From: Pseudovirgaria hyperparasitica | Taxonomy: Eukaryota | Direction: 5' to 3' (one strand) | Assembly: GCA_010093815.1 (NCBI GenBank) | Contig: ML996582.1 | Length of the DNA stretch: 64,000 bases | Shown here: positions 26,845 through 61,378 of the stretch, piece by piece | Layout of the letters: every line of letters begins with the position of its first letter | Position numbering within the stretch: position 1 is the first letter of the stretch | Program-made: the position numbers and the translations under genes | Notes under the pieces: generated by a model | Databases searched by the model: none | The model's input: the letters and a program-made list of their open reading frames with translations, nothing else | Told to the model about the DNA's origin: nothing

Positions 26845-29775
26845 ATGGCTCAACCCATTCGTCGCGCCAACAGTGGGACTTTCGTCGGCGCACCTTCGTT
26901 CTTAGCATCGATGAGGTGTGCTTCCTTCAAAGTCGACGAAGGATATTCAGAGGATACACGCAGCCAGAGCGAGAACGACATTCTTATGCGTTCCGACTCA
27001 AGACTGGAGGAAATGACAGAGGCTGACGGCCAAGTTCTTCCAGATTGGCTTCTTAGCATGAATGAGGCTGACCGGAGTGGTACGCTCGTTCCTTGACCTC
27101 CGCACACATGCTCATGTGCAACGCTGACGCGCATAGAATTCACGTATATGATTCTACGAACTCTACGAACCTCTTCGATTGCTTCGATTGTGGACCGACT
27201 CAATCCGCTCCTACATCTTGATCCTGTCCTGCATCTTCCCCCCGAAGTCACCTCCATCATATTCTCCTACCTTACTCCAGACACCCTGTTGAAGACCTCT
27301 GCGCTCTCCAAGTCGTGGCGAGGTCGTGCCCTGGACAGTCAATTGTGGAGATTGCTATTCAGGTTGGAAGGATGGACTGCCGATCCAGCAAAAATGCGAG
27401 CATTCGAGGATGAGGAACGGCTACGTCGCTCCGGGCTGCGAGATCGGAAGAGCCGCGTCAGATTCGCAGACAGAGGAACCGAGAGGTTCAGAAGCAAGAA
27501 ACGTGCGTACGACAGCGGCAAATCCCGCGACGGCCCAACACCAATGACGGTGGAAGAACCTGACATTACAATGGGCTGGGCCGAACAGCATGGCAAGGTA
27601 GAAGCCGATGAGAGCCTCAACAACAGTCCTGACCGCATGCAGGACGTCTCGTTCGAGAGCGACCATATTCCTATGCCGGCTGCTTCGACGCCTCTGGAGC
27701 CACCTGTGAAGCCCTCGTTACTACTAGATGATTCCAGTGACAATCCAAGGATCAACTGGCATTATCTCTACAAACAGAAGAGACGACTCGAAGACAATTG
27801 GAATGCAGGTCGATTTAAGAATTTCCAATTTCCGAACCCTGATTATCCGCAAGAGGCACATACTGAATGCGTCTACACGATCCAGTATTCCGGCAAGCAT
27901 CTGGTCAGCGGTAGCAGAGACAAATCTGTGCGGATTTGGAACATGGAAACACAACGCCTTACACGACCGCCACTTTTAGGGCATAGTGCCTCTGTGCTAT
28001 GCTTGCAGTTCGACGACAGTCCACAAGAAGATGTGGTCATTTCCGGAGGAAGCGACTGCCACATCATCGTCTGGCGGTTTTCTACAGGAAAGCTCCTCAA
28101 GAAGCTCTCACGCGCCCATTCCGAATCTGTTCTCAACCTCCGATTCGATGAGAATTACCTTATAAGTTGTTCAAAGGATAAATCGATCAAGGTCTGGAAC
28201 CGCAAGCAGCTCCTTCCTACGGATCCCTGCTATCCAATAGTAACCACGGCGGCGTCTGCTCATTTCCCACAGCATATCATCAGTATGGACCAAGTGCCAG
28301 ACTTGCAGCGCAATCATATTGAACCTCTGCCGGAGTATAGCTTGATAATGACCTTACAAGGACACACTGCAGCCGTCAATGCGATCCAGATATACGACAA
28401 GCAAATAGTGTCAGCTTCCGGCGACCGATCTGTCAAAGTTTGGGATGTGAGGACTGGCAAATGCTTAAAAACCTTTCAAGGTCATACCAAGGGCATAGCA
28501 TGCGTACAATTCGACGGACGTCGCATAGTCAGTGGATCGTCGGACGAGTCTGTCCGTATCTTTGATCAAAGTACAGGCGCTGAAGTGGCTTGCTTGAATG
28601 GTCACAAAAACCTCGTTCGCACAGTCCAGGCATCGTTTGGCGATTTTCCGGGAAATGAAGAAGAACTCGAGGCAGAAGCAAGAAAGGTAGACCGGGAATT
28701 TTTCGAAGCTCGAGACCGTGGAATGCTTGGAGAAGATAGTCTGTCCCGCGATCGTCGTCGTATGCGCAATGCAGGATCGAAAGATCCCAAAGATATCTTT
28801 GCGTACGGAGCCAAGCTGCCGCCGGGTGGAGGCGGTAGTCGATGGGCTAGAATCGTTTCTGGATCTTACGATGAGAGTGTGATAGTCTGGAAGAAAGATG
28901 CAGAGAGCGGCAATTGGGTGGTGAGCAAGATTCTACTCCAGAACGAGGCCGTCAGATCCGCTGGAGATCGACCGCGGAACAGACCAACTCAACAACATCA
29001 ACAAGCGCATAACCACCCGCATGGACAGACTGGGCAACAGAATCAGCAGCAGCAGCAGCAACAAGGCGGTGCACAAAACGCGGGCAATGCACACAATGCT
29101 GTCAACCAGCTTGTTGCAGTGCAAGCCAACTTCCAAGCCCTCGCCGCTCAAGCTCACGCTCAAGTTGCTCACGCGCAAATGCTCGCTCAGCAAGCGCAAG
29201 CACTTCATCAACAAGCAAACAATGCACAAGCTGCTCAGGCTGCTCAAGCTGCCGCGAGCAACAATCAAAATGCTCCGCATGGACTCGCCGCCACCAACGC
29301 GGCGCCCAATAATGCCACTAATCGCCCCACGGCTCACCAGAGTTCTACACAGCATGCGCCTGGTCAAGGTCAATCAAGTGGCCAACCGTCAAGCCAAGCT
29401 CAACACTCCCATAGTCAATCTCAGACTCAGGCTCAGGCAACCCAAAACCAGTCTCACAATGCTCCTGGGACTGCGAGTGCTGCAGCTAGTAATAATGCAC
29501 CCGCCAATGCACCAGCGCCTCAAGCCCAACCGCATCACCATCATCATAACCACAATCATGCCCACGGCCACGGTCATAATCACCACCACCACCATCATCA
29601 TCCGCTGGGACCGCTTGGCGTCCAACAGGGCACCAATTCACGCGTCTTCAAGTTGCAATTCGACGCTAGACGGATCATCTGCTGCTCGCAAGATCCCACA
29701 ATTGTCGGCTGGGACTTTGCAGATGGCGACGCGGACATTATCAGCGCAAGCCAATTCTTCGGCGAGCTACAGTGA
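26845..29775 (+). CDS. fwd-1: F-box/WD40 protein, beta-TrCP/FWD-1 type
   Basis: ATG 26845; intron 27080-27136 joins ORF 26845 to ORF 27148 in frame. F-box LPPEVTSIIFSYL; WD repeats (HTECVYTIQY..SGSRDKSVRIWN, GHSASVLCLQFD, GHTAAVNAIQ, GHTKGIACVQFD); terminal RVFKLQFDARRIICCSQD. Confidence 0.9.
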
Positions 29776-30247
29776 ATGTGGTTCAGTCTGTTGATATTTC
29801 ATCCGGGAGGTTTTTGTGAGATAAGGGCAGCACATACATTTTTATTCAGACATGAGGCATCGCATGTTGCATTTTCGCATTGGGTGGGAGAGAGTCTTTG
29901 GTATACTTTCATAGCACTTTTTATTTATCTATCACTATCATTATTACCAAGGCCTGTTAGCGCATCATTTTTATTATTATCATCATCATCATCACCGTCG
30001 TCATCATTATCATTATAGCAGCATTCATCGACGGGCTTAGTAATCAGTCAGCAGTCAGGTCAAACATTAAAGCGGACGGGAGGCATAGATCTTGTATGTA
30101 TTCATGTATACAGCCAGCCTTTTTTTCGGAACATGAATAATAAAAGCGCTTTTACCTACTTCATTTCGTTGCCATGTATCGTTCGTCCTCTGCGTTGCGC
30201 CCCTGACCTTATATCCATGGATGCATGTGCTAAGCTTCAGTGATACG

Positions 30248-30251
<4 letters not shown>

Positions 30252-30306
<55 letters not shown>
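30252..30306 (+). repeat. (CT)n microsatellite, about 27 units
   Basis: Read directly; lies at the boundary between the core and accessory blocks. Confidence 0.95.
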
Positions 30307-30310
<4 letters not shown>

Positions 30311-31138
30311 CTACCTGGGGTTTTCAGAATCGGCTGGGGAGCTTTTAGGGAGGATGGAGAGGAGGGATGTTGTTATTTATTTTTGGCGTTGACAATTGGG
30401 GATGGGATGAGGATGGCATGGCATGGCATTAGGATGGGATCTATAGGTACCCGTTTGTCCTCTTCGATGGATCGGGGGGCTTCCGCGAAGGTCGTACTAA
30501 TTGATGAATGATGAATGGATGGATAGATGAGTGGATGACGATGGGTACTTTCATTTCGGGTATAGAATCCATATGCGGATTTCTTATCGTTGATGATACT
30601 GTTTTTAGGGGATTTCGTTGCTTTTAGTGTATGTTTACGGGTGCGTCTCTGTAGTAAGTAGGGATTGGCGGGCTTTTCTTGAACGTCTCCTTTTTGGTCT
30701 TTGATGGCGCTTGTGGGGGTATTGGCTATTGTTTTTTTTGCTTCTTGAGCTTGAGCTTGACCTTGGCCTTGCCGTTGTGTTTGAATGACTTCTTAGCGCC
30801 TAGTAAGGTTGAAGGTTAGTAGATGTATGTGTAGATAGAAGATATAGATAGAGTAAGTTAGGGCCGGAGTTCTATCATCGGCGGTGTATTTCTATGTTAG
30901 GAGGTTCATAGGGGATGGTAGTGTCGAACGAGGTGTAACGGCGGAAAGGTAGGATGGGTATGTGGTTTGCTTGGGGTGTAATATGGTAGAACTTAGGTAC
31001 CCCGTGCCGTGTAGATGAGTTCAGCAGGCTGGACGGATGTAATACCAGAGCAATTCGGAGTGTGTATATCGGTATTATAGAGGGTAGAAGAGGGGAATGT
31101 GGTAGAATATACTGGGTTTATGGACTTTGTAATGTAGC

Positions 31139-31516
31139 GTGAACTTGGTCGAGAGTAAGCATAAGCGGCCAACCTTCGAGTACACCATCTCAGCAACGGA
31201 AGACTCCTTGGAAGTCACAAGTGACCTAGACGCCCATATTGCGTCGTTCCAGAACTTTCGACAAAAGGTCCACACCGCAAGAAGGGCACAGGGCCTGGAT
31301 AAAGTCATCACGACCGATCCTATCTTGAAGAAACCGACCATAAAGCAGGAGCTCAATGTGATTCGACCTGGACTAGCCAAAGAACGAGTCGTCATCTCGT
31401 CAGACGAAGAGGAAATCGACAGTGATTTTGCCACAGATCAGGCGCGCCACATGCCTGCGAGAACCTCCGCTGCTCCAAAAACGACCTTACGGTCGTTTCA
31501 GAGAAAGCCCATGTAG
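31139..31516 (+). CDS. Small orphan ORF or gene remnant
   Basis: 125 protein-like codons (ERVVISSDEEEIDSD) in a TpA-rich context; no clear ATG. Confidence 0.3.
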   Translation: MNLVESKHKRPTFEYTISATEDSLEVTSDLDAHIASFQNFRQKVHTARRAQGLDKVITTDPILKKPTIKQELNVIRPGLAKERVVISSDEEEIDSDFATDQARHMPARTSAAPKTTLRSFQRKPM

Positions 31517-32339: not shown

Positions 32340-33070
32340 AGCTATAGAGGTTATTTGAATATAGATATCTTAGAGGTTATATTGAATGTTATTCTTTCAT
32401 ATAGACTAAGGGAGTATATATATATTTTAGAAGTTGTAGATAGATTCCTTACTTTAGAGTATAGCGAAACTTGGATATAATAGAGTTTATAGATGAATTT
32501 ATAACTATAGAGTATAGTAAAAGTTAGATCTTCTATAATAGAGAGATTAATTTACTATCTTATAGGCGGATAGAATTTTAATATATTATAACATATAGAG
32601 GAATTTCTTCTTCTTTAGTATAACGAAACTCGGAAATCTTATAATATATAGATTAATACCTTACTCTAGAGTATAGTATAACTTTCATTTCTTCGATTAG
32701 ATATATACATTTCATTCTCTATAGCATGATAAAACTCCTATATATGATAAGTTATAGATAAATATATAGAAGCATAATATAGAAGGAAACGTAGGTATCT
32801 TATCATAGTTGTATAATTTTCTTCTTTTACAACATAGCGAAATATACAGAGGTTATTATATGTACATGAATTTCTTCTTCTGGAGCTCGAAGGAACTTCG
32901 ATATCTTATGATATATAGATGAATCTAGTTGAGTTTAGTATAGGGAAACTTAGATACCTTATAGTAGATACAGGATTTTCTTCTTTTCGGGAATAAGAGA
33001 ATATCAAAAGATTACAATATATGGGTGATTTCTCCTCCTAAAGCTCGCCGAAACCTTGATATCGTACGGT
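32340..33070. repeat. Diverged 53-bp minisatellite, about 14 units, TpA-rich
   Basis: GAAAC-like cores recur at about 32466, 32519, 32625, 32678, 32731, 32786, 32839, 32892, 32945, 32998 and 33050. Approximate consensus GAAACTTAGATATCTTATAATATATAGATGAATTTCTTCTTCTAGAGTATAGC. Confidence 0.8.
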
Positions 33071-33341: not shown

Positions 33342-34320
33342 CTATGATACACCCCCCTCTCCCTCCTCACCATTCTGCTCCCGCTCCCCCTCTTCTTCTT
33401 TCTCCGCCTGGTCGGAGTAGTAGTCCGCCAGATCCAACGCATGAATCTCCGCCTCCGCATGCCACCGCTTCGCCACAGCCCGGAAATACCTTCTCCGCAG
33501 CTGCCGCTCCCGGCGCTGCATCTCGTCGTAGTTGCGCTGTCTCAGCATCGGCATCTGTTGCGTGTTGTGTCTGACGGCTACGCCACCGTCAGCTGGTTCG
33601 CTGGCTGCGTGCCGCATGATGCCGTGCTCTGTGGGGTGGAGTGTTAGTGTCCTGTTTGGTATGGAGGGGATGCGGTGTCCTTACCTCTGTCAGCAGCGTC
33701 GAGTGCTACTGGGCGGTCGCTGCCTGAGCGCGACTTTGGGCGCGGAACGGCAGGATCGTTAGCAGGATCTTCTATCCCGCGCAGTACCACGCCCTGGTAC
33801 TCTCCTTCTTCTCCAGGATCTTCATCATCACCGTCTTCTTCATCTTCTCCTTCCTCCAGCTCCGGCCCCTGCTCCGCACTCCTCAAACGGCCAAGCATCA
33901 CGCCCAGATCAAACGCCGTGAAGCCGTACACGTCCCTCCTCACCATGCCCTCGGGCCTACTATCAACGGCAATCCTAATCGCCTCGACAAAGTCCCGTTC
34001 GGACGTGAAGAACGTGGTCAGCTGGAACAGCCGGTCGATGACCGTGCGGGACCAGTTCTCGTAGGGGAGCAGGACGTCTGGGACGTTGTTGCTGGCCCGT
34101 GGGAGGCGGTTGTGGGTTGCTTTGCGGATGTGGAGTTCGGCGGGGATGACGTCTTGCATGGGTCGGTTGAAGATGGTGTCGAGGTATTGCTTTTTGATGG
34201 CGTGTGAGGGTTCGCCGAGGGGGAATGCGGCTGGTGGAGGCTGTGTTTTTCGGAGACGTGAGTTAGTTTGAAGTTTTGAGACTGTGGGTTTTGGGAGAAC
34301 GGGTGTGAGGGATGTACCAT
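33342..34320 (-). CDS. Orphan-family gene A: one helical domain, acidic linker, C-terminal helix
   Basis: ATG 34320-34318, intron 34317-34241 (GTACAT..CTAAC..CAG), exon 34240-33685, intron 33684-33629 (GTAAGG..CTAAC..CAG), last exon in frame with ORF 33342-33617. Confidence 0.75.
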
Positions 34321-37300
34321 TGTAAATATGGGAGGTGCGTGTGTGGGGTTCAGTTCGAAGATCTGAGTTATAGAAGAGAAATACGAGTATGCTGAGACGA
34401 TTTTGTCGCACAATATATAGCTTCAAGGATGATTTTACAAAGGCTTTTCTCTCTGTTGGATGTAGTGCTGTAGCGTAGTGGGTGGGTGTAGGCAGCTTAT
34501 AAGTAGGCAGCGGCAGTCCCAATTGGGTAACAGACGCGAACCTTTACGAGGAATTACAAAACTATATTAACGTCCGTTCTTATAACGACCCGGCTAAGAG
34601 GAACATCCAGAGGTAGGGCGCTAACCTTGTGGTAAACGCTCACAGTGTCTGGATACCTCTCAGGGGTACCATGGAAGCTGGACTTGGTAATATCCAGAAC
34701 TTCACGACTAGGAACAACGAGCCTTGTGCGTGTTAGTCTATATCTATTGCGCGGTAGGTGTGTATGGAACCTGTGTTTCCCTGTTTCTCAGGCGTTGGCT
34801 CCACGCGAATTAGAAACACGTCTAGCCCCTGAAAAAGGCGATTATCTCTCCATGGCTTTTCACAATGTAGGGAGTCAGTCATACGTGTTCTTAATATGGC
34901 ATTTGGAGGCTTTCTATGTTTGTTTGTGTTCCGCGGGCTTCGCTTCGGGACTTCTTTAAGGCCTGCACAGTGGTTATTGGATGCCGCTGCTAATGAGATG
35001 CTAACAATGATATCGATATTGCTACTCTATACCCTTGTCGTGACGCTCGGAACTATATGTTATTGTAGACATATACGTCACGTCGTGACGATTGGTCTTC
35101 TATCGAACGACTCCTTGTATAAGTGTTAGAGTGTAGCATCCTTGGACACGTTCCCCTTTCTGGTCTCCATGTTCACGCCTGGTAGGCTGGTACTTCACTA
35201 GTGCTGAAGCACCATGTACGTGGATTTCATAGGACAATTCCATCCTCGCGGAATCTGCTCCGCCTCGCTTGTACATCTACGTTCATTGTTTACTTCACTA
35301 GTGTATGGCACAGGTTGCGTATGACTCGGCGTATGGCTCGGCGTCTATGAAACTTACCCGTCGTGATAGTTAATGGCACCACTAGCGTCTATGAATGAAA
35401 CTAGTTACATTGAAAGTGTATATACATGAGTCACATTGTGAGATACATGGATACTATACAGAGTGTAGTCACCCATGGCATGATTGAAATCACACAGTGC
35501 CGTTACACCCACACTCATGACACCAATCGTCACTGAATGGATCTACCTGGCATAGTCGCTTTTGGGCCTGCTACGAATATGTGTATGTATATATATGATC
35601 CACTTCTTACCCACTCACACCTCCACAAAGCACACCATACTTCGCAACCCTACAAGAGTGCCGCGGTTCATGTCTGCTTTCCAGACACACCCATGCCTCT
35701 TGGGCTGTGTCGATGATCACACAAGAGATAGCAATGGAACTGTAGTTTCAGCTTATTCAATCTTTGCCAGGATGCTGTGTTCCTCGGTGGTTCGTGCTCT
35801 GACATGGTCAGAATCTTAATGGTGGCAGCGATGACGGCGATGGTGATGATCCGCAGCAGCAGTGGCGGGCTAAATAGTGAACGATGATGATGCAGCTGGG
35901 CAGCGAGGTGTGTTGGGGATGGGTATCAGTGCTTATGAGGCCTTGGGCACATGAGGGATGTGGAAGCCCCGTGGTCATTGACAGTTGTAGTGGCCAGATG
36001 GAACAGTAAGGTGTGTTCTGGTACGAGAAGAGTTACTAGAGTCCCTTATTTATATACACAGCTTAGCGCGGAACGGTGCCTCATGTGACCTTTCATCGCC
36101 GACCGGCACGAAACGCTTCCGGGTTGCTATTATCCCAGCAGGTGCTCAGCTGGTTCCTGACAGGATATACAGCTCTGTGAAGGGGGTTGATGGCTTTGTT
36201 AAAAGAGAACCTGGTAGACTTGGGCGGATTTCACTGTTTGATAAGGGGAAGACAAAGATTGGGCCACGCTGCGTAGTGTTGGATAGCTTGGTATAAGTTA
36301 GTTCTGGCCGGTGTTCGCCGTATGTTTACCTGGGCTTAACTATTTGGATATTATGTCCGAATACTGTAATCAATATATAAAGTTTTGGTCAGCTTGTCCA
36401 ATACGAGTGCACAGTGGATGAACTATTAAGTAGCAACTAATGTGCCGATAAACGTACAATTAACACCTCAAAACGCGATGATATACACTAACGGTTCGTA
36501 GATCGATCCTTGTATCATATTTGCTTTCAGGGCCCCTGATACTGTCAGTCAATCATAACAGCGCAGGGCTCCTTCGTCAATCACCACAAAGCTCAAACAT
36601 CCGGAGCAAGTGTTATACAAGGAGGTCCAGTATATCGTGAATCAGAAGTTAGACGGTAAAGTCGTGCCCGGTGACTGAAATTCTATCCTAATGTGTCATC
36701 TATGCAATTCGATGTCTGTGTTTCGAACATTCACTGACATGTCTTTCTCTCTATTCATAGTACAACCTTCACAATGGCGTACACAGAGGGTATGATCTAT
36801 CACGCGGAAAGATTCAAGCGCTGTGATCTATCTAAAAGTTGTGTTTCGACCTCTATGTCAGTGAGTCGCACCTGCACGATCTCATTGAATGCATATGGTG
36901 GTGCATACTATCGCGGTTGATCTCATTACGAATCTAATTTAGACCAGAGACGGGACTTCACTATCTGCTTATGACCATGAGTACGGTCCGCAATCTATGA
37001 GATACCTTAAATGCGAAAAAAACACTCATCCGCTAGTCATAGACGGGGGTGCACGTCAATCCGATATGACCACGGCACAATGCTAGATGAATGACTAGAT
37101 CGGAATCCACTCGCCAAAGGCAACTAGAACAGGAAAACTATACACACCGATACAAGGTAGAGTGACTGATAACGGAGGGATCAGCTTACGAATGGGTCAT
37201 CGCATATATATCCGCTTGTGAGTTTACACGTTCTTATGTTATGATTGGCTACTATATACTCATTTTGTCCTCCAACTAAGCCATAGATGATCCCCTGCAT

Positions 37301-38878
37301 CTTATCAAAGATTCCCGCACCGACGATGCTTGCTAGCTTAACAAGATCGAACGACCCGGTCGCCATACGAGAATCAGACGCCCGGCCTTGTGTCTGTCGC
37401 CCGACCGCTACGAAGCATATAATCGATAGAACTCCCCTCTGAAAAAAGCAATATAGTCCCAAAGATAGCCGACGGCCGAGCAGCTACTCAAGAAAGAACA
37501 ACAAACACATAGGCAAGAAGTCAGGATGCTACTATCTGCCGCCTCTTATACAGTATAGAACAACTCGAGCATGGAACAGCTTGATCAATGAGAGAAGTTA
37601 GGCCTACAAGGAGGCGATCTGGGGCTTAAGATATTGCATGTAAGCGTAGAACTATCAGGACACCTTCGTGAGGTGTGGTGTAGCTTGGGTCATCTTATTA
37701 GTACGCAGCTGACATAGGACTGCTTTCACAATGCCCAGGTCTGCAACCATGTCTCGAGCTAAGAGTCGTTTGACTATAATGACTGACTTCCATTCTTGCC
37801 ACATGGACGGCTTTGATATAGCTTTCAATTTGACCAAGGCGCTGCCCCTAGCTTGTGCCCGACCAGAGAGAAGTTCTTTCTAGCTCAATATCTTGTAGCA
37901 CTTTCTAGTCGAAGGTGCTCTAAGAGCGCGATCCATCTAATAATTTACCACTTACGCAGTGTCTAGTGCTGGCAGATTTGCTTACAACTCGGAGGGAACC
38001 ACAGCTGTTGTTACTTGAAGCGCTGGAAAGGACGTTGTCCATTCGTACACTCTGCTGTTTCTATCACGCTGACTGTGTAGGAAGTCACTACGTGGTAGAG
38101 TATTACTCTTATTCACTCGGACTTGTTTGCAGTGAATAAATAGAAAGAACATGTTAAGAGTGTTTTATAGCATTCTGTCTTTCTTGCACGTCCATCTCTG
38201 TTCAAGTCAAAACACCTACAATGAATTACGGCGTTGAATCGAATGATCGTTCAACCTCAACGGTGCGTGTTATGTGCATCTCTTACTCGTATCTATATCG
38301 GTCTCAAAGTGTTTCATGGTGTACGTCTCTGGGATTTATCTTCAATTTTCACCCCTGAAAACGCGCGGCGGCGATGCCGTTATATCCATACTAATAGTCA
38401 TAGCTTTTGAATCCATATAGAAGCTGTTTGTTGTAGCCCTAGACATAAAGGAAGGAGAATTTTGTACATTTTACAGAACGCTTTGCATCTGAAAATCGTA
38501 TTACCATAAGCCAAGGTCGGTCGAAACTAAGTGGTTCCATACAGAAACATAAGAGATATACCGGCACTCTCCTCGTGGTATCTGGTTGTCCATTTTGGAC
38601 ATCCCTAAGTAGCATTGCACTATGTGTCATGGGTGACTTCTCTGCAACTGTGAAACCGTACCGGATGAACCATGGACCGCACATCCGCGCCCCTTTATTC
38701 ACAATATTAGCGAGATCTAATCCCACCTTCGGCCCGAGGAATATTTCTTGTAAAACTTGGTAGCCTTCTACATACTCAGCCAGATCTATCTATATAAATA
38801 CTGTAGTACGTCCCAGCTCAACTTCGCCCGTTACATTCTAGCTTTGTATGCATTACACTCTAAACACCTTTGTATAGG

Positions 38879-40624
38879 ATGTGTAAGTATCTAAGAACTT
38901 TGCACTAGAAAGTTGAGTTTACTTATCGACTGTACAGATCACGGTACCGACAACATACCCACGTGGAGCAGTAACGGAGCTGCCTTAGCGGATAGATTGG
39001 TATTAGAACGTGTGGAAAGGGATTTTACGCATTATTCTGAGCGTATACCTACCATGGTAAGACTGTATCTTCCTACTTCAAGTGCTTCATATCTTATTCT
39101 TCGTAGCAACAGGAAGAGTTCCAACGTCGGCATAAGATGGATATCGAACAGCAGCGTCGACAGGACCTCATTGAAATGATCACAAAGGCTTGGAAGATCG
39201 ATAAGATCACCGAGTTCTTGAGTCCTCAAATGACACCTCGGCGACTAAGGACCCGTAACACTAACCCAAACCGAGATATCTACATGAACGTACAGGAAGA
39301 CAAGCTAGATCTAGCCTTACTAGAGCTATTGTGTGAGCTTGCAAAGCTCACTACAGGAAGAACTGTAGATGCAAGGAAGATGCTGCTCAAACACTGGGCT
39401 TTGAGACATCCTGACAAAGACAACCCCAGGGATGATGAGAATCGAGGCCTTATAATTGAGGATGTCGCTCATGCTCTTAGCGACGCAAAGGGTACGTTAC
39501 ACATGCTCTACTAACCTCGTATATATAGCATAACACTGACATATGGCATAGAGAAAAGTAATCAGAGCAGAGCTATTTTGAATCAAGATGTTAGATCTCT
39601 TCCGCTGCCAGTCGAAACTGGGCAGGGCAAGGAGAAAGTGTTTAGCTCTGTAGATGCTGATAGTACAGCGACACCTGTTTTCGGAGGACTAAGCTCTCAA
39701 GATCATACGGCAGATGCTACACACAAGCGTAAGACTATTGGATCTGTTTCCAACAGTGATTCCATCCCGTTGAAGCATCGTAAGTTACCCGGATCCTACC
39801 AGGAAAAGCATTAACGTTTTCTAGTCGGGATACCTACGGCAGCAGAACCAGTGCCGTTTGACAGACTGGTACCAATACACACATCTGCCAAGTCAATGGC
39901 GCCCCTTCATGATCCCAGTCAAGTCGGATCGACGAGAAGAAACGTCGTGGTTGCCACCGGGGTCCCAAAAGGTGGACACAAGACTCCCCAAGTATCGAGC
40001 GCGGGGATCAAGAGACAGACGCCCGACGCCCTACAATCAAGCACTAAGGAAGAAAGAACAGACAGATGGATCAGCGAGACACGTAAGCACGCTCCAGCAG
40101 CGCATAATGACATTGGTGATGCTGATAAAAGTCCAGAAAAAGAGTCTACGACAGTCATCCACTCTGATGACTCGCCAGACAGCTCATACCAGCCTCCCAA
40201 GCCGGTTGGGTCAAGGCGACCCAAGAGGAAGCGTTCCATGCCTAAGGACGTACCCATCTTAGACTCGGAGGGCCCAGCGAGGAAGACAAGGGTGGTAGGA
40301 GCACTACACACTCGGTCACAGGGGCCCTGTGACGAGCAGTCGCTAGCAGAGTCCTGGAAGACCGTAGTGGCAGATTCCGACTTCCCCTCCAATGACCTCG
40401 CCCCAAACCATGAGCTTGTCCGGTGGCAGTCAGATACTGTGGACATCAACGAGACGCAGCGGGCGTACGCAGCTGCGCACCACGGCGGAATGAGCCTGAC
40501 GGAGATGCGGATGAGGTATACCCTGGCTTCAACATTTGTAGATCGCATTGATGCCGATCTCAATCGACAGTTCTTGGGACTGTCGATTTATGAGGCCGAG
40601 CAAAGGGAGGCACAGGGCGAATAA
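38879..40624 (+). CDS. Orphan-family gene B: one helical domain, disordered basic linker, C-terminal helix
   Basis: TATATAAA at 38791. ATG 38879; introns 38883-38937, 39057-39106, 39492-39550 and 39780-39824 join ORFs 38913, 39137, 39578 and 39851 in a single frame. Confidence 0.75.
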
Positions 40625-40969
40625 GTTGACCAAGAGGACAGAATACGTTTCTGGTATGATTAGGACACATCGCATTGTATACATAATACACAGTGTCCAA
40701 CGTGCGTGCACAGATACATATGATAATAAGTCGTGACATTAGACCGTACCATGTATGACCCTCTTTGAAGTTCGCCGTTTCGATTACGCTTGCGTCTACA
40801 TTAATCGATCCACGTCCTCTGAAAGTGTTTAAAAATACTAACAAGTTTGTCATTACACGGTTTCCGCTAATCACTACCCCCAGATGATTCGTGTGGGTAA
40901 TGGATTACTCTTTTTCTGATCTACTTTATTATAAGAGAGAATGTAACCATGTTGTAACGATATAAGTAT

Positions 40970-41781
40970 TTAAGCCTACACGAAGAGGCATCCCTACGTG
41001 TCTAGGATACGTTATGGATGCTTAGGCTATTTTCTAGCTCTAGAAATCCATCTACAGAGCTAAATCATAATAAATAGGGAGCCTGAGTCACCCACAAGAG
41101 ATGTAGGCAATACCATAGTACTTAGAAACCACTATATCAACGAGGCTACTTGAGATTTGGATAGCAGTCTTTCTACGAGTTCTGTTCTCTTGGAACTCCA
41201 ACGATTAGGTAGAATCTTGAACTATAAGAGTATTCTTTCTATTAAGGCATACAGTAGGTCTAGAGCTAGGAACTCCTACTATCGGTACTAGCGAATACAA
41301 GTCTTATATAAATCGATATGCTCCTCATATGTAGGAGTTTCATGATCTGAGAGATCTCTTTTGATTTTTATATTGATACACTTTATGCTGTTGTTCATCG
41401 CGTGTATTATCTTTACTTGAAACGACCTTTCACATGAATAAAGATCTGCTCTAGGAGCCATGTATTTCATTGTATAGGTAGTCTTAATGATTGAAGTCTA
41501 TTGAGTACGATAGAGCGATACATCCTATTCAAAGCTGTGCATTTACAGATTTTCCCGAAGTTTAGACCTGTGATATCAGACATAAACCTTTCAAAAACGT
41601 GATTTGACACAGACACGAAATATTTAATATCATGACACCGCCCACAATTAAGTAGTTTATTAGGTGTTAAGCGCTTCTTATTCCATTCACAAGCGAACGA
41701 TGAACAAGCTCTATTGAGGTTCAACAAGCCGAAAAGTAGTATCCAGTAGTGTTTTTCGTAGTTTTCCGACTCCCAGGACAT
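40970..41781 (-). pseudogene. MYND zinc-finger gene remnant
   Basis: ATG 41781; RACSSFAC..KLLNCGRCHDIKY, then after a frameshift SCLCQ, and KICKC back in the original frame. The downstream frame contains several TAG/TAA stops. Confidence 0.5.
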
Positions 41782-42400
41782 TGCGATGAGTATATGATGT
41801 ACCTGAACGAGTGGTTATACTAGTGTCAATAGGTTCAATACTAGCTGGAAATCGAGACGTGTGTAGAAAACTTTGTAGATATATACTATATACTTAAGTC
41901 ATGAGTTTAGTAATAGTTGTATCTTATGGCTACATTGGGTTAAGACTAATACTATATAAACCAAAACTCGCTATAGAAAGGAATCTTCTGTTAGAGAGCC
42001 CCAGATTGAAAGATTCTTCTAGGTTATAGTCCTGGTTTCATTAAAGGCACTCTATTCACGTTAATTCTAATGAATATCGGGGGCTCCCTTACCTCATTAT
42101 ATGCAAGTATTACAATCAAAACCACTTGTCCTCCAAGAAGTGAAGAAGGAAGCTTTGGTAACACTATGTACCCGAGGGCTAGCTTCAGAGGTACATTTAC
42201 GGTGAAACTACACATTGTGAAAGCACACGGTCCCGGCGAAAGGTTTTCGCGTCAAGTAAATACAAGCTTGTCTAAGCAAAATTTGCGCTGCTAACCAATA
42301 TCATAGCAAGCTACGCAACCTGAAGCACCTTCTATACAACATCTTTCCGATTATTATCCCCATTCTCTCTGTCAAGATTGCCTCCTTTTACTCACTTATA

Positions 42401-44621
42401 ATGGAAGATTCTACTCAGTCTAACATTTCATCCGACGAAGTGCCACTTCTAGAGCCCCCGAGAAGAGTAAGCACGCGTCATATCCTAACAGAATTCGCTA
42501 GTACTAAGATATATTGCACCGCAGAGGCTAACACAAATGCAACTTAAGAGAAACCAGGAGCTAGCAAAAGCATGCCATGCAAATTGGGGCTCTCCATTAG
42601 GTGTATCAGAGTCTACCGGAGGGAGTACTCCTTTGCTACCTCGGGTGCAAGGTTACGAAAAAGATGGCTTCACGCCAATACCTCTTGCCCCTGGGGATGA
42701 CCCTGCTGGCTGGGCGGCCGTGAGACTAGAGGACTGGGATGTTGAGTTGCTTGAGAGCATGCTGGAACTATCCCAGATCACGAAAGGTAGGCCCAAGCAA
42801 GCCAGGCGAGCCTTAGAGTATCAGAGAATGCAGCGGCGTCGTGGTGATGGCGATGACAATTATATCGCGTCTTTCACGAAGAAAGACGTAGATGATGCAA
42901 TCGTATACTTGAATTCCGACTCTGGAAGAGAAAAAGAAGCAGAAGACGGAGATGGAGAGGTGGGAGCCAGGCCTGCAAGCAATACAACTTCTACATATCC
43001 CACAAGAGTAAGTATCCGGACACTACAACGACTAGACAGTTCCCGCTAAATAGGTATCTCACAGAGGTCCAGGAATCAGCAGACTGCAAAGACAGTCGAA
43101 TTTATCAATCAGATCCAATGGTTTTGGGGCATAACGAAAGAAAGTGAGATACTACCAAGAGACTTCAAGTACGCACCTCGTGGTATTCCTGGCGCGGACG
43201 GTATCCTGCAGGAGGTAACCTTGGATCAACAAGGTCTGGATTCAGAACCACTGCCACCCATCTATTGGCCCCTGGGTTTATTAAAGTCCATGGAACGTCT
43301 CGCTATAGTCACCAAGAACAATCGTGCAGGTGCTCTGGAGGCACTGACCCGCGAGATTATGGCAAGACAATCGGGTACGAGCGAGGGCCGCCATTACTTA
43401 TACCTCACAGCTAGAGACGTTGATAAGGCATCGAACAAAATAGCGCTGGCCAACTGTCTGGAGAAAATGCAACGCAAGAAGCTCATCAATAATCGCTCTG
43501 GAGAAGTCCACCCCAACGGTGGAGATATGAGCACTGAAACTGTCGAGGGAGAGGTCTCACAAAGTGAGAAACGTATAACAAAACTACAGGTACGATTCGA
43601 AATCGATGCTTCTGGAAAAGTCAGAGTCGTCAGAACCGAACCCATATCTCAACAGCAGCCAATCATCATGCACGAGGTCGACGACTCCTCTCCTACCACT
43701 ACGCGCCGCTCAGGACGTCAGACTGAGAGACCGGACTACAAGGTCCGAAAGGCATTGAGAAGCATGTATGGTCGGCGTTCTCTCCCAATCATCCCAGACC
43801 CTACAAACACAGCTCATCCTTTGCCGCTGCTACGACTACAGCTCTCCGAGAAAGCAAGGGGAAAAAGAAGGATGGCTGACGCCGAGGACACCAGCACTGA
43901 CACCGATACTCAGCGCAAGAGGGCCAGAGCCCTATCAAAGCCTCGAGGAACGACGAAAGAGATAGCACAGCCAGCTCGTACCGCGGTTCTGGCGGAGCAG
44001 CCTCCCCAATTCTCATACAGCCAACACAACACGACCGCACCTCAGACCTCAGGACTCGTACAACCAGCCTTGCCTCCACCACACCAACCCACCCAGCGCC
44101 CTCAAACGCGCTCAGCACGACCAAACCGCCTCCACCAAATGCTGCAAAACTCCACCACGCAGGACAATCTCGCCAACACCGCCTCACTCCGCAACAACGG
44201 TGAATCCAGCAGGACCGCCAACTCCGACCCGCCTCCACGCCTTCAACCAGCCCCTGAGCCCCTTGCCTCCGCACCGCACGCCAACGAACGTGAGATCACG
44301 GCTCGCCTTCATGGACTGCGGCTAGAGGCATACCCGCTTCCGCCGCACGCAGACGTCAACCGCGTTGGGATGGCGTGGACGCACACGGCAGATCTGGGCA
44401 TTCTCGAGTGCATCGAGGATGCGCGCGCCTGTGCCTCTGAGCACCGTGCGTATGCCTTGGAGCTTCGGCTGGAACAGCAGCGGAGGGAGCGAGAGGGTGG
44501 GATGATGGAAGTTCGTGCGGGTGAAGAGGAGGAGGGGTGGAACGGAGAGAGAGAAGAGGGCGGGGAGGATGGAGCTCCGGGTGGGGAGGAGAGGGGGGAT
44601 GGAGAGGCCATGGAGGAGTAG
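42401..44621 (+). CDS. Orphan-family gene C: two tandem copies of the helical domain, basic/Pro-rich linker, C-terminal helix
   Basis: ATG 42401; phase-0 introns 42467-42524 and 43008-43064 (both AGA|GTAAG..CAG|AGG) join ORFs 42537 and 43221 in frame. Confidence 0.8.
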
Positions 44622-51547: not shown

Positions 51548-52323
51548 CAGACTTCCTATCAATCAGTTCAACTTCAATTCGACCGCCTCAAGAACTGGTT
51601 AGTTTAGTTCAGTTAAGGCCTCTTACTAAGAACTAACGCTTTAGTTTAACTTTAATTTAAGATAGTATTAAACTATAAATAATTAAACTAAACTAAAGTA
51701 TATATATATATAGACTATAGTATTAAGATTATTCTAATTTTATAAGTACTAGAGTTAGGCCGTAGGCTAACTTCCCTTATTTACTATATATATTAAATAC
51801 TATTACGTTAATAACTACGCGTTAATAACCTTAATATAGTATTCTAGCGGTCTATTTATACCCCTAAGGAGTACTCTTAAGATATATTTAAAAAGTAGTA
51901 TAGCTAGACCGAGTGTTCGTAGCGTAATATATATATAAAGAAGCCTTAAGATATATCTTAGAACCTAATACTAACTTAAGATACTACTACCTATAACTCG
52001 ACGATACTATCTCTCTCTAGTATTAGCCCTATTCTATATAAGTCTATATCTACTAATCTATATAGTTATCTAGTTCGAGAGCCCTCTAGGATAGAATTAG
52101 GTAATATAGATAGCGTAGAAGATCTAGATTATAACTCTATTATTAACCCTAATAATAAGTCTATATATAAAGGCATTAATTAGTAATATCTCTTATCCTT
52201 TATTAAGCCTATAGAGATACTTAAGCGGGCTAATAGCTTTAGCTAGATCTAGTAATACGGGTATTATCTCTAATAGATAAATAATAGAGCGAAGTACTAG
52301 TAGTATTATATATACTATTATTA
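51548..52323 (+). mobile_element. 5' portion of a RIP-mutated hAT-family DNA transposon, interrupted by LTR element A
   Basis: Candidate TIR CAGACTTCC at 51548 and subterminal AGTTC/GAACT repeats in both orientations. The frame at ~52170-52320 reads GIN**YLLSFIKP..S*I**YGYYL..KY**YYIYY, which reverts to the GIDW..SWIWQHGY..CxxC BED-finger start of fungal hAT transposases. Confidence 0.6.
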
Positions 52324-53990
52324 TGTTAGGACGGGAACCATAATAGACCTATATAGATTATTCTAATCCATGTAGCCACGTAGTGGCTAGAGCTAGGTTA
52401 AGTTAGCTAAGTTAAGCGAGGTTACTATATAAGTAGACCGTATAAACCGATTCCTACTTATTAGGAATTAACCTTATATAAGAGTAAGATTACTCTATAA
52501 ATACATTCCTATATCTCTCTATAAACTATTAGACTACTATCCTACGTCTTTACTCTTTATATTTTAATTTCTCTCTATATAGTATAACGGTAGCTTATAG
52601 AGATAGCTCCTACTACGCGCTATAATACCCGTGGCACTACCTTATATAAGAGACTCTCTCTAAATCTAAACGAAGAGAATAGTCTCTCTACGACTACCTC
52701 TACTAATAAGTATACTCTATAGACTATCGTACTAATAACTAGTACGGCATTCCATATAACCATAGAAGATTACCTAGATAATAAGGAAGAAGTCTATTAT
52801 ACTCCATCGCGGTCTAGTTTATACTATACTAGACCCATTCTTACTATAAGACTAGACCCTATTAACGTTAATAAATTAATTCGTTAGAACTAACTAACGT
52901 TAACCACGCCTTATAATAATATATATACTAAGCTATATACGGAGAGGTAGTATTAGGCTTAGCTTAAGTAGTAACTTCGCGAACTTGATAAAGTATAAGG
53001 ATAAACCGCTAGACTCGAAGCCGTACTACGCGCTTTAGTACTAGTAGTAACTAACCTATACTAATATAGACTAACTTAAGCCGAAATAGTCTAACTAAGT
53101 CTATTACTATTCTAGTTACCTTAGCCTAAGAAACTACCTTACTTTAACGGTAAAACTAGAAGAAGCTTTTATAAATAGGCTTACTAGTATAGCCGATTCT
53201 TCTACCTATTCACGAACGATAGTAATAAGATTAGGTTTATATAGAACTACCTAGATCTAACGCTATCTAAACGTTAGATAGTATATCGAATTAAATACCC
53301 TAAGAATATGTATAACTAGGACACGTTTACTAAATTCCTTCTTTAATACTTTAGTAATAGAGCCGAGCGACGCGAATAGGCTTAGAGCCATATCTTTAAG
53401 ACTTAATAGCGAGAGAGATAATCCCCGTTATAACTCCTTAAATACCTCCGACCTCTTTAGAGAGAAGCTAAGGAAGATTATATAGTTTAATAATATAACG
53501 ACTTTAAAAGGTCCCTTAACCCGAGTGTAAAGGAACGTATTAACCTTATAATATCTATCTCTACTAACCTTTAGGCACTCGCGAATCTCGTAGAACGATA
53601 TTAGTATATAATAAATAACTAACGTCGTATAGACGCACGACTATCCCTATTAATCTAATCCGATACGAAATTATCTAAAGAGGACCGGTTTAGTAATAGA
53701 TCGCGCGGAATACCTTATAGGCGCTACTACTCTATAAACTTAAGAAGACGAGGCCCGTACTACGGATCTTTCTACTAGTTAATATATCGAGACGCGAGAA
53801 ACGACTTATATAAACGACCTAAAGTTACCTACTATACCTATAGTAGGATAGGCTATATAGCACCCGAGTACCGCTTAGGGAAACTACCGAATACTAATAT
53901 AGATACTAAGTTAGTTATATACTATAAGTGCTAGTAGCTAGGACACATCGCGCCTAACTACCCGGTATATAATATAAAAAACTAACTATC
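52324..53990 (+). mobile_element. Ty3/gypsy element A, 5' part (5' LTR from TGTTAGG to about 52627, then gag), RIP-inactivated
   Basis: TG start; two RIP-altered CCHC knuckles at ~53825-53965 (YYTYSRIGYIAPEY; YYKC**LGHIAPNY); gag ends A AAA AAC TAA at 53976-53985. Confidence 0.8.
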
Positions 53991-54218
53991 TGTAAGAATA
54001 GGATTATTGGATAGTAGTGTAGCCAGATAGAACAATGGGGTGTATTCTGTCACAGAACGAATTACTACCGAACCCTTTCGGTAGGAATCCGAGAGTATAT
54101 ACATAAAGGGACGCCGATCTATCTAGCACGTGACTGTTTACCGCCCTTCACGTTACCTCCTAACCCTATTAGCTAAGGTACGTATAGGTCGAGTCCTACC
54201 TAAGGCTAAGTCCTAATA
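53991..54218 (-). repeat. 3' LTR of element B
   Basis: Matches 61146-61373 with 11 substitutions by my count. Confidence 0.95.
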
Positions 54219-54702
54219 ATTATCCCTTCCCTCTAGGAAGCTACCCTTAGCGACCTAGATCGTTACCTATCCCTATATCCCTATCCTAAGTCTCGTAAGA
54301 CCTTAGTCGTTCTCCACGCTTCGTCTTAGATACTTGCCGATATTCGCCGATCTAAGATTCATATAAGCGTTTTCCTAACAAACTAGATTTTATCCATCTT
54401 AACTTCTTATATAGGTGAGATTACCTAATTAGGCCTAGCGTATCACGTGATATGATTAGGTAAGCCCGGGTGCTACCTATATTAAAATCTTTTCTTAGAA
54501 ATATTCCTTTCTTCAAAAAACTTCTTAACTCTTTATAGAGTTTTTTAGATTATTAGGTATATCACCCGATCCTTATAGATATAGATTTATATAGATTTAC
54601 TACTATTTAGTGCGATTTACATAATTTACTAATTTTCGTGCCGTCCTTAGCTAGTAATAACACAATTCGTAATAATCTATATAAATTAATAATAATCGTA
54701 AT

Positions 54703-55684
54703 ATGGTTTCCCGAAATCTCGACGCTCTAAAGCAATCGGCGCGGAAATAGGCGCCTTCGAATAATCCCTATCTCGTATACGTTACTGACATGTCGAAAGC
54801 TATTAATCTACCCCGACCTAGGCCGGGCTCTAATAATCTAGCCATATATTATTATAGTTATCGCTTTCCGTCGTACATTGCTCACGGCGGTACTAAATCT
54901 ATAATATACGGCACTTACATAACCAAGAAGCGTTATTACTTATAGATATTTAAGCAAGTTCGAAGAACTTTACGCAGATTTACTTATATCGGTATAGATT
55001 ACTACTAGGCCTCTAGTAACCCCTACCGATAAGGAGCGTGGTACTACCGATCGCAACGCCTTAGAGAAGGCTTTCTACGAGCTATATACCTAAGGTAAGG
55101 GTTACGCCTAGGAGTACGATTCTAATAAGATCCGTAAGGGTTTATCGGAATCTCTTATAGCTATTATTACCGCGATTGCTAGGTAACATCGTTTTTCTTA
55201 AATCGTTATAGATTCTTACTAATATATATTAATCTCTATAATAGTGCTAAAATCTCTGCCACTTCGGACTTCTTTCTATACACCGGCGATATTAAAATTC
55301 CTAGAAAAGGTTCTAGTAAAAAGGCTAAGGTTCCTTCCTCGCGCGTGCTAAAGAGCCGTAAATTTAGGGAAGATAGCTCTAATCTAGAAGTTTCTATACT
55401 AATGGTATGTGGTTCTATACCGATCGTTAAATCTTTTCGCTGATTTATATAATTCTTAGCGTGCCCACGCCGGTCCGTCCCTCTCCGTCCCGGGTTCCGC
55501 CGCTCTATAGGTTTCTATAGAGGAGTTCATAGCTATAAGGCGCGCTATATAGAATTTATAGCGTCGGAACGAAAGGCTAGAGACTTATGTTATAAAGCTC
55601 TATACTATACTAAATAAGAACTAGTAGAAGGAATTAGATGTAACCATCGCGGTAATTAGTACTTCTACTCCTACTCCGACTTAA
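54703..55684 (+). pseudogene. Spliced accessory gene antisense to element B (Zn-cluster-like N-terminus, C-terminal coiled coil), RIP-mutated
   Basis: ATG 54703; introns about 54954-55008, 55183-55244 and 55405-55459 with compatible phases; all internal stops are TAG/TAA. Confidence 0.65.
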
Positions 55685-58600
55685 TCGGTTTAGATCTATA
55701 CTAATCGGTACTAATATGTCTCTTTTATCTGGCGTTTTGGTTTTTTCGGTTTTAATTTTAAAGCGATCTTACTTCTTCTAGATAGATTAGTGCGAGTTTA
55801 TATAGATCTATATAGATCTTCGTATTTTCTTTTAGCTTCCTTAATTTCATCTTTCTTTAATAATAACTTCTTTAATCTCTTTAGTAATCTATACCGATCT
55901 ATACCGATCGGCACCGATTTTCGATGTCCATTTCTCTTAGTAAATTATTTTTCTAAGTCTCTTTTTTAGTTAATTTTTTAAAGTTCTAAGTTCGAACTTT
56001 CTAAGGAAGTTCCTTAATTCCTTAGAATGTTTTAAAGATCTATGTCTCTTTTACCTTCTTCCTTTTAGGCGGCCGTCCTCGGCGCCGAACTATACTAAAA
56101 AATGTCGAATCGCCGTACTTTAGCATAATTCTCTACGATTCCGCGGCTTCCTTTACTAATTACTACTTATACGCTAATATCGCTGCTTTACTAATATATA
56201 TTACGGGTTCCCAAGTATCTTCGTTAGGATTATACCCTTTCTAACGAATTTTATATAGCCACGTGCCATCTTCGGCACGTTATTAGCCTAGTATCTACTT
56301 AACTTTATAGATATCCGCACCTCCTTACGTAACTACTTTATATAACGTCTATTCGGAACGATCCGGTAACGATAAGGTATGGAATAGCTCGAGAAGCGTG
56401 ATATAGAATATATTATGTATCTTTAACGTGGGAGGGAGTTTTAACTTATACGCCTAGTCATTAATTACACAAGTAACCTTAAATAGACCTATTATCGTGT
56501 AGTTAAGCTTCTTCTTCGGCCTAATACTACGAATATTTTTACTATTTAGTAAAACTTTATCTCTAACATTAAAGATTATAGGCTTTCTACCCTTATCATA
56601 GTGCGATTTACTATAATCTATAGTATCTTATAATAACTTTATAACGCTTCTTTACGTTTAGAATAGTTCTATTATAATCTCCGTCGCCTTAACGTTAGAC
56701 TACTCTAATTTATACTAAGTTCCTATAAACTATACTTTATAGTTTCGACCGAAGTTTGCTTCGAACGGACTTACGTGGGTTAACGCATATCGGCTGTTAT
56801 TATACGCGAATTCCGCGACATAGACTAACCTTACCTAGTTATCTTACTTATAGTTATAATATACGCGTAAATACGCCTTAACTATCTAATTCTACCGCTC
56901 TATCTATCTATCTATTTATAGGTGGAACGCGGTACTAAGTTTCCGCTTAATTCCCAGCGTATAGTAGAAATCCTTCTAAAACTTAGACGTTATCTACGGA
57001 CCTCTATCCGAAACTATGCCGTTCGGCGTACTGTAGAGCCGAACTACGTCACGAAGTAGTATATCTATAAGATCCGGTGCTTGGATCGTCTTCCTTATAG
57101 GGATATAGTATAATATCTTTATAAATCTATCTAAAACTACGAGTAAACTATTATAAATATACCTAAGACACTTACTTAGGGGCAGATCTATAATAAAATC
57201 TATCGACAATTCCTTCCATACTTCCTTTAGCATAGGTAATAGCCTTAATTCGCCATATAGTAAGTGTCTATATACTTTCGTATGCTGGTAAACGTTATAC
57301 GTTTTTATATAGTCTTTTATATATTTATAAAGACCCGGCTAGTCGTACGTCCTTCGGATTAAATCGACCGTCCTTATAATGCCGAAGTACCCTACTAACG
57401 CGTAATCGTGCTGTTCCCTTAAAACATTAATTTATAGGCCGCCTTCCGGCACGTAGAGTCGGCCTTAGAAGTAGATCGCGTCTAATCGTCGTTCCTACCT
57501 TAATAACCACGGCGGTTCTATAGCCATTCCCTTTATACTTATGACTTTCTTTACTAATACATCGGAATTCTAGGTAGATTTAATTAAGTCTTTGAGGATT
57601 TACTCTATTTCTTAGACGTTAGTTTAGATTACTTAATACCCGCTCTAATTCCCGCGGAGAGTCGCCGAAAGTGTCCTGGCTTCCGGCACTCTATTAGATA
57701 ACTAGTCTTTTAGTATCTATAGTATAGTATAGTCTAAATTACACTAACTATCTACGTTATTCTACGACGATTTCTCGTAATCTTTACGCCGTAATAGAGG
57801 ATCTGCTTTATTCTCTCTTCCAGCTTTATATAAGATTTTAAAGTTAAATATTAACATCCACTTAGCCTAACGTACTTATCGGCGATTAAGGACCTTAGTC
57901 GACATAAAGTAACGTAGATTTACGTGATCCGACAATAATTCAATCTAATATATAGAGCCTTCTAAATAATATCACCATTACTAAAAACTCTCGATAATTA
58001 CGAGTAGTTCCTAGTCGTGCGTATCATAACGCGTCTCTACATCCGCTATTTTACGGGAAAAGAAGGCGACCGGGTGCTATTACACCTTATCTTTCGCATC
58101 TTTATACGGTTAACTAATGATTCTAGCAATTACGAATCTAGATGCGTCTATTTCGACCCGAATATGCTTCTTAGGATTAAAATACCTAAGAATTAGCGTA
58201 GTTATAAAGTAATTCTTTAACGATCGGAACGCATCTCGCGCTTCCGGCGTTAACTATATCTCGACCGACTTAGCTTTACGCTATGCTCGCCCACCTATAG
58301 GGATTTTACCGCCATTCTCTATAAGTTTATTAAGCGGCGCCGTAATTCGTGAGAAACCTATAATAAATTTATGATAATAGTTCACGAAACCTATGAACGT
58401 CCTAATTTAACGTATAGTAGTAGGTTCTAGCCATTCTATAATGGTCTTAACACGCTCTAGCTCTATTTTAAGGCCGCCGTATATTATAATAAAGCCGAGA
58501 AACCTAACTTCTTATTAGTAAAACTTATATTTAGATAACTTTGCGTAGAGTTTATACTATCTTAAACGATTTAGCACCGATTTCACGTATTCTTCGTGAT

Positions 58601-61373: not shown

Positions 61374-61378
61374 CTATC

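Follow-up and report, generated by a model that had tools for sequence, protein, structure and literature searches.

Three intron-containing genes, here called A, B, and C, lie between positions 33342 and 44621 of a 64,000-nucleotide stretch (the window) of contig ML996582.1 in the genome assembly GCA_010093815.1 of Pseudovirgaria hyperparasitica. The species, a dothideomycete that lives as a mycoparasite on rust fungi, was sequenced in the 101-Dothideomycetes project (PMC7082219). A preliminary description of the locus, made by eye, had grouped the three genes into one family carrying four copies of an unrecognised ~100-aa helical domain. In this study, we found that genes B and C appear to share a predicted helical unit, which is duplicated in gene C, and that gene A is not detectably related to either. 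B and C are already known as NCBI hypothetical proteins, and none of the papers listed for the species name concerned the three genes, while no paper carried the locus-tag prefix EJ05DRAFT; a probable third copy of the unit, C3, in gene C is a new detail.

Gene models and copies of the unit

The product of gene C (42401..44621, plus strand) is identical to the NCBI hypothetical protein EJ05DRAFT_514455 (P0001, 758 aa). Its exons were read as 42401-42466, 42549-43007, and 43065-44621, the last including the stop codon. In the annotated model the start lies further upstream (~42.1 kb) and the second exon begins at ~42525 instead of 42549, with the acceptor of the first intron at ~42524 as against 42548 in the reading by eye. 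For intron 43008-43064, splicing by eye and the P0001 annotation are the same. The annotated 5' extension (42100-42400), ~58 residues long, contains a hydrophobic stretch and, if translated, is a possible membrane anchor. The protein ends in an acidic tail and has runs of at least three Lys/Arg residues at five P0001 positions (78-80, 183-185, 377-379, 507-509, and 524-526). Copy C1 of the unit (126 aa; 42549..42926, plus strand), whose quoted segment falls within open reading frame (ORF) 42489-43049, is predicted to consist of a Trp-bearing N-terminal helix, a Pro-rich disordered loop, and a three-helix core (42720-42926). Copy C2 (129 aa; 43086..43472, plus strand; core 43260-43472), recognised by its Smith-Waterman and BLASTP match to C1, has its quoted segment within ORF 43050-44621, and the probable truncated copy C3 lies at 44322..44501 on the same strand.

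Gene B (39137..40624, plus strand; exons read as 39137-39491, 39552-39779, and 39825-40624) encodes a product identical to the NCBI hypothetical protein EJ05DRAFT_489680 (P0002, 511 aa), the annotated model of which has extra 5' exons from ~38.9 kb. Both introns (39492-39551 and 39780-39824) are spliced in the P0002 annotation as they were by eye. The single putative unit copy of gene B (118 aa; 39137..39490, plus strand; core 39281-39490) was delimited by hhalign and Smith-Waterman comparison, its quoted segment falls within ORF 39107-39514, and Lys/Arg runs of at least three residues occur at protein positions 228-230 and 376-380. An intron follows the unit in both genes, immediately and in phase 1 in gene B, and ~27 residues later and in phase 0 in gene C. 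Genes B and C are on the same strand with 1.8 kb between them, and gene A is within 5 kb of gene B.

Gene A (33342..34318, minus strand) was read as an ATG at 34318-34316, an intron at 34315-34241, an exon at 34240-33685, a second intron at 33684-33629, and a final exon at 33628-33342, although its start is uncertain. The segment quoted for it falls within the minus-strand ORF 33644-34543, and the stretch earlier aligned as the fourth copy covers 33869..34090 on the minus strand (74 aa), its identity as a unit being unsupported. In both gene A (34316-34318, minus strand, ATG followed by GTACAT) and gene B (39054-39056, plus strand, ATG followed by GTAAGA) an ATG stands directly before a GT-type intron whose acceptor is in frame and which contains a branch-point-like motif; the gene B annotation splices at 39054-39056 too, though its start is further upstream. 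All four segments named in the preliminary description are thus found in frames that are open, can be spliced, and follow the local codon usage, and its manual splicing agrees with the P0002 and P0001 annotations at the junctions readable in B and C, the acceptor of the first gene C intron being the point of difference.

Similarity among the copies

Significance of Smith-Waterman scores was estimated by residue shuffling (2000 shuffles), and leave-one-out hidden Markov models (HMMs) were run on the complete set of 789 window ORFs with a length of 40 aa or more. C1 and C2 aligned with a score of 78 (z 11.2, 0 of 2000 shuffles), and BLASTP without composition correction gave 30.6% identity over 98 aa. 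The internal C1/C2 duplication in gene C is real. C1 also aligned with the B copy with a score of 58 (z 6.6, reached in 0 of 2000 shuffles), at 40.6% identity over only 32 residues. With the C1 HMM alone, the top two non-self matches were C2 (E 4.8e-4) and B (E 8.7e-4), and the C1+C2 HMM detected B at E 0.004, rank 3. Furthermore, the detection of C1, which had an E value of 2.2e-4 with C2 without B, sharpened to 3e-7 because B was added to C2. An hhalign comparison of the C1+C2 profile with B gave E 2.4e-4 and a probability of 43% over 78 columns, in an alignment that runs colinearly from the Trp-bearing helix at the N-terminus as far as core helix 2 and in which the N-terminal helix of B resembles that of C2 and not that of C1. 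After core helix 2 ends, a D-V-x-x-A motif follows at a distance of 23 residues in both C1 and C2 and of 25 in B, a spacing noted by eye and post hoc. On these comparisons B appears to be a weak but reproducible relative of the C units, and there is moderate evidence pointing to a common ancestry of B and C. The aligned core covers ~55-70 residues; the unit is not a compact domain of ~100 aa, because its predicted extent is ~125 residues including the disordered loop.

The three-copy HMM has a third colinear domain envelope in gene C (6.4 bits, independent E value 0.39), which corresponds to C3. C3 contains a P-L-P-P loop and the predicted first two core helices; it matched C2 (Smith-Waterman score 45, z 5.1, 0 of 2000 shuffles) with the P-L-P-P loop within the match, and gave no significant match to C1 (z 1.0). 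The helix at the C-terminus of gene C (44322-44501) is therefore probably a truncated third copy, as far as these comparisons indicate. A C-terminal helix had been thought common to all three genes, which pairwise Smith-Waterman comparison of the C-termini does not bear out (z 1.4 for A-B, 2.8 for A-C, where only the acidic tail aligned, and -0.4 for B-C); that of gene C resembles C2. When A, B, and C were used as tblastn queries on the window, no additional copies were found. Instead of four copies in three genes, the count is two full copies and a probable truncated one in gene C and a single copy in gene B.

Gene A

Gene A neither found the other copies nor was found by them. Against C1, C2, and B its Smith-Waterman z values were between -0.5 and 0.2. 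It ranked 292 with the C1+C2 profile and 244 with the C2 profile among the 789 ORFs, with negative bits, and appeared in these two result tables only; conversely, B, C1, and C2 were all absent from the top five non-self matches of its own HMM. An hhalign comparison of the three-copy profile with gene A gave a probability of 0.05% (E 0.84, 20 columns). The only similarity between genes A and C is in their acidic tails. Gene A is thus not supported as a family member. Because A is undetected, the family as first stated fails, whereas a two-gene B/C family passes weakly, C1, C2, and B detecting one another in profile searches. Gene A appears to be an unrelated orphan neighbour, or one which has diverged past detection.

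In a protein-language-model feature search, gene A was nearest to ankyrin-repeat clusters (score 0.95; 10 of the 10 best named matches in one family set), and by eye the stretch around FTAFDL looks like the start of an ankyrin helix. However, the recognition value was 1912 against a bar of 2300, 127 of 256 features were shared where true members usually share at least 170, and no Ank family was found in Pfam at E<=1 for the 299-aa ORF or at E<=10 for the 74-aa segment. An ankyrin-repeat assignment of gene A is accordingly unsupported. A set of 156 candidates of 100-319 aa included neither an annotated counterpart nor a scoring relative of gene A. ATC/ACC-type codon repeat runs occur at 29534-30016 and 33818-33843, sharing low-complexity similarity only, and the latter lies within the acidic stretch of gene A, read on the opposite strand.

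Predicted structure and domain searches

AlphaFold2 modelling of the C1 unit on a three-row alignment gave a mean predicted local distance difference test score (pLDDT) of 66.9 and a predicted template modelling score of 0.65, with pLDDT of 79-89 in the core blocks. Helices were predicted at residues 2-13, 65-77, 82-99, and 111-124, the first two being separated by a disordered loop. With moderate confidence, the unit is predicted to fold as a small four-helix bundle.

The description of the domain as unrecognised has held, as no Pfam, PDB, or fold relative rose above background. With the three-row model, 0 of 28 listed Foldseek matches in PDB had E<=0.001 (best E 1.2). A wide VIA-align search found 1 of 48,161 chains at Z>=5, where the helical-bundle background reaches Z 13; the best match was CbbX (Z 5.2, root mean square deviation 3.5, 78 aligned), followed by Rubisco activase (Z 4.7), and the top matches of this search and of Foldseek alike were AAA+ lids (CbbX, Rubisco activase, ATAD1, Drg1, Pex1/6, NVL, and proteasome Rpt). 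Among the BFVD viral models, 0 of 21 matches had E<=0.001. The PDB sequence-profile search gave a single match, CBP30, at E 0.33, and ESM Atlas gave no usable feature match for residues 120-400 of C, with structure matches at template modelling scores of at most 0.27. The Pfam-A search, which takes in HET, NACHT, Myb/SANT, UBA, CUE, TS-N, AAA, and Ank, brought none of five ORFs to a curated gathering threshold (E<=1); the sub-threshold noise consisted of DDE_Tnp_4 (12.8 bits versus 24.8 needed), DUF6263, and Adeno_E3. None of seven unit and C-terminal segments had a Pfam-A match at E<=10.

Order-promoting residues make up a fraction of 0.19 in the middle parts of the proteins, versus 0.30-0.34 in the cores. 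By composition, the rest of B and C outside the units is predicted to be disordered and basic, with Lys/Arg runs that look like nuclear localization signals. The starts of B and C as read by eye are hydrophilic.

Coding status and relatives outside the locus

By a codon log-likelihood trained on eight Pfam-confirmed ORFs of the window, all 7 exons of genes A, B, and C scored best in the frame read for them (0.083-0.172 bits/codon; 0.083 and 0.119 for the large exons of gene C), though such a score partly reflects a plain lack of stops. Control genes, two of the training set, scored 0.14-0.155 bits/codon, and two intergenic control stretches gave only negative values over the six frames. The genes contain stop-free frames of 523, 299, and 269 codons, and their introns, judged by eye, are canonical GT..AG introns with CTAAC-type branch-point-like motifs and preserve the frame. 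Repeat-induced point mutation (RIP) was scored by TpA/ApT >=1.15, (CpA+TpG)/(ApC+GpT) <=0.75, and a composite RIP index (CRI) above 0, in 1-kb bins for the surroundings. Genes A, B, and C gave 0.62-0.80, 1.12-1.22, and -0.38 to -0.50, respectively, outside all three ranges. The earlier view of B and C as intact is consistent with these normal indices.

In a phmmer search with P0001 among 1,835,955,588 representative proteins, only P0001 itself was found at E<=0.001, and at the database sizes used in these searches paralogues that have diverged as far as B would be undetectable. Exon 3 of gene C found only itself among 8000 scored word-sharing candidates from a 5.8-billion set, as did exon 1 of gene B among 230 candidates, and a JGI metagenome scan with P0001 gave 98 pattern matches, 0 of which were confirmed. 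In the searches run, B and C thus look like species-restricted orphan genes. Fast evolution or recent origin would fit, because no relatives of B and C were found outside the species.

Discussion

We consider it somewhat more probable than the opposite that B and C are intact, species-restricted, distant paralogs which share a unit of ~125 residues and encode mostly disordered, probably nuclear proteins. In the unit, an amphipathic N-terminal helix with a conserved Trp would be joined by a disordered, proline-rich loop to a core of three helices. Gene C would have arisen by tandem internal duplication, yielding two full units and a probable truncated third, and gene B would have one unit. Both proteins may be nuclear and largely disordered, as their composition weakly suggests. 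Most likely, the helical bundle would serve as a module that binds a partner, either a protein or a nucleic acid, and its multiplication in C would allow multivalent binding. The nuclear protein family proposed in the preliminary description is in so far plausible that basic clusters are consistent, weakly, with a nuclear location; the binding role is likewise a weak suggestion.

Several results weigh against this interpretation. C2 and B compared directly gave a Smith-Waterman z of 0.4, not above chance, and with the C1+B HMM C2 came no higher than 8th (E 4). When the complete B and C proteins were compared by BLASTP under composition-based statistics, the best E was 0.71, default tblastn at E<=10 gave neither the B-C nor the C1-C2 match, and the hhalign probability for B was no higher than 43%. 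The shuffling preserves composition and leaves helical periodicity uncontrolled, and therefore amphipathic Leu/Glu-rich helices could inflate z; moreover, the segments compared had been picked by eye beforehand in the preliminary description. As for the fold, the single-sequence AlphaFold2 model of the two-copy region of C was poor (pLDDT 42.5), and the better model depends on an alignment of three rows. Nuclear location and binding role are based on composition only.

These points could be taken to mean that only the C1-C2 duplication is real and that the likeness of B to C1 is a chance or compositional match of amphipathic helices in unrelated orphans. The shortness of the B-C1 alignment (32 residues), the BLASTP, C2-B, and hhalign values just given, the unrelated C-termini, and the different intron positions and phases in B and C all speak for this. 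Yet B is the top or second non-self match of the C1 and C1+C2 profiles among the 789 ORFs, its addition to C2 lowers the E value for C1 from 2.2e-4 to 3e-7, the 78-column hhalign alignment is colinear and includes the N-terminal Trp helix, in which B is closer to C2, and the D-V-x-x-A spacing is kept in genes 1.8 kb apart on the same strand. We regard a chance match as unlikely, though it has to be taken seriously. It is quite unlikely, on the other hand, that the three genes make up a single fast-evolving family in which the domain occurs four times and A is the most diverged member. The best hhalign alignment of A does fall on the stretch aligned earlier, a Trp followed by a hydrophobic helix (A residues 58-77), the spacing from Trp to F-T is alike by eye (44 residues in A, 47 in C1), the general layout is similar (a helical segment, then a linker that is acidic or disordered, then a C-terminal helix), and gene A is less than 5 kb from gene B. 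But an hhalign probability of 0.05%, z values of -0.5 to 0.2, and HMM ranks of 244 and 292 with negative bits argue against membership, as do the confinement of similarity with C to the acidic tails and the proximity of A to ankyrin clusters, itself weak.

That the genes are non-functional, as annotation-only ORFs, remains of decayed elements, or recent de novo ORFs, would be in keeping with the lack of a homologue in the searches run and of a Pfam family, with a gene-poor setting adjoining a RIP-mutated block at 52-64 kb, and with the failure to recover an annotated product of gene A between 100 and 319 aa in length. This is very unlikely in view of the long stop-free frames and frame-keeping GT..AG introns, the housekeeping-like codon usage in 7 of 7 exons, the CRI of -0.38 to -0.50, and the fact that C1 and C2, at ~30% identity, have both kept open frames and helix-forming patterns. 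Alternatively, the unit may be a very diverged form of a known helical domain, either an AAA+ lid four-helix bundle or a UBA/TS-N-like three-helix domain. The top fold matches do form a coherent AAA+ lid set, led by CbbX and Rubisco activase. However, the Foldseek values (best E 1.2, 0 of 28 listed at E<=0.001) and the single chain of 48,161 at Z>=5 do not stand out, none of the seven segments matched AAA, UBA, CUE, or TS-N in Pfam at E<=10, Pfam found no ATPase core in the ORFs of B or C, the PDB profile search gave CBP30 only, and no UBA-type chain was among the fold matches listed by Foldseek, VIA-align, and BFVD. We therefore hold a known domain to be very unlikely indeed. Least probable of all, and to be thought of as a long shot, is a new lineage-confined helical domain family in a nuclear conflict system (genome defence, incompatibility, drive, or rust-host interaction), with gene A as a third, diverged member or partner.

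Seen as a unit shared by two paralogs, the B/C module can be set beside known systems. AAA+ lids (CbbX 3syk, Rubisco activase 4w5w/3thg, Drg1 7nku) resemble it in their four-helix arrangement and size, at background scores only (Z<=5.2, Foldseek E>=1.2) and identities of 5-25%. Unlike such lids, which follow a P-loop ATPase core, the B/C unit has no such core before it, and its first helix is predicted to be joined via a disordered loop of ~50 residues. The three-helix UBA, CUE, and EF-Ts N-terminal (TS-N) domains have a short helix, a Gly/Thr turn, a helix with A..(A)L, and a third helix with a D/N-V-x-x-A-like motif at its start, whereas the B/C unit has ~23-25 residues inserted between helices 2 and 3; the likeness of core helices 1-2 and the D-V-x-x-A helix to UBA/TS-N, judged by eye, is a lead supported by none of the tools.

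Orphan genes of filamentous fungi are taxonomically restricted and often lie in gene-sparse compartments, and in Dothideomycetes gene-poor regions commonly hold disordered orphan genes. B and C are alike in having no detected homologue outside the species, high predicted disorder, and a gene-poor site near RIP-mutated repeats, as well as in local duplication and internal repeat expansion. They are, however, not small, secreted, Cys-rich proteins of the effector type, their starts as read are hydrophilic, and they carry a predicted foldable helical unit which was duplicated and retained. Another difference is that none of the 15 one-kb bins immediately around them, at 30-45 kb, looks RIP-like. 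B and C are ordinary for a fungal genome and open no long-standing question. Should the B/C unit prove to be a genuinely new family at the fold level, it would add one more lineage-specific domain to the large unexplained fraction of fungal proteomes, and it would illustrate on a small scale how a gene grows through internal duplication. Caution is advisable, as the proposed third paralog (gene A) and the pseudogene island, both read by eye, failed statistics.

Surroundings of the genes

To the left of genes A, B, and C lie ordinary conserved genes for a protein kinase, a DUF4048 protein, a beta-carbonic anhydrase, a DHBP synthase, Cdc24, and an F-box/WD40 protein. The F-box/WD40 gene (27097-29772) is the left boundary of the gene-poor stretch, and a cytochrome P450 gene (45998-47383) is its right boundary. 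The 15-kb island of pseudogenes once placed here is not supported. Of the 158 ORFs with 55 aa or more at 29.8-45.6 and 47.4-64 kb, 42 overlap A, B, or C; Pfam was run on the other 116, none of which reached a curated cut-off. The two intergenic controls were non-coding, and none of the 15 one-kb bins at 30-45 kb passed for RIP. At E<=0.01 there were four families in three ORFs (Atrophin-1 and DUF3915 in a low-complexity ORF, Chitin_bind_4, and SH3_Tf2-1 in the RIP block), all below cut-off and with no credible pseudogene among them. No inverted repeats bounding the region were found, and therefore there is no sign of a bounded mobile element; no tRNA genes were found in the region either.

Just downstream of the 3' end of gene A, at 32427-33030, we observed a diverged AT-rich tandem array of ~10-12 copies with a 53-bp period and 61-75% identity to the reference copy, which was missed by Tandem Repeats Finder. 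The dip in GC content to 0.32 at 32-33 kb is due to this array and not to RIP. Between the F-box/WD40 gene and gene A, two stop-free frames at 30376-30792 (minus strand, 139 codons) and 31133-31513 (plus strand, 127 codons), neither with a Pfam match, may be additional orphan genes, and a perfect (CT)28 microsatellite occupies 30252-30307. At the other end of the window, 12 of 12 one-kb bins of a strongly RIP-like, AT-rich block at 52000-64000 pass, with TpA/ApT of 1.35-1.95. A weak, sub-threshold match of 56457-56627 (minus strand) within this block to SH3_Tf2-1, a Tf2-1-like integrase SH3 domain, was also seen and suggests a degraded Gypsy-type retrotransposon.

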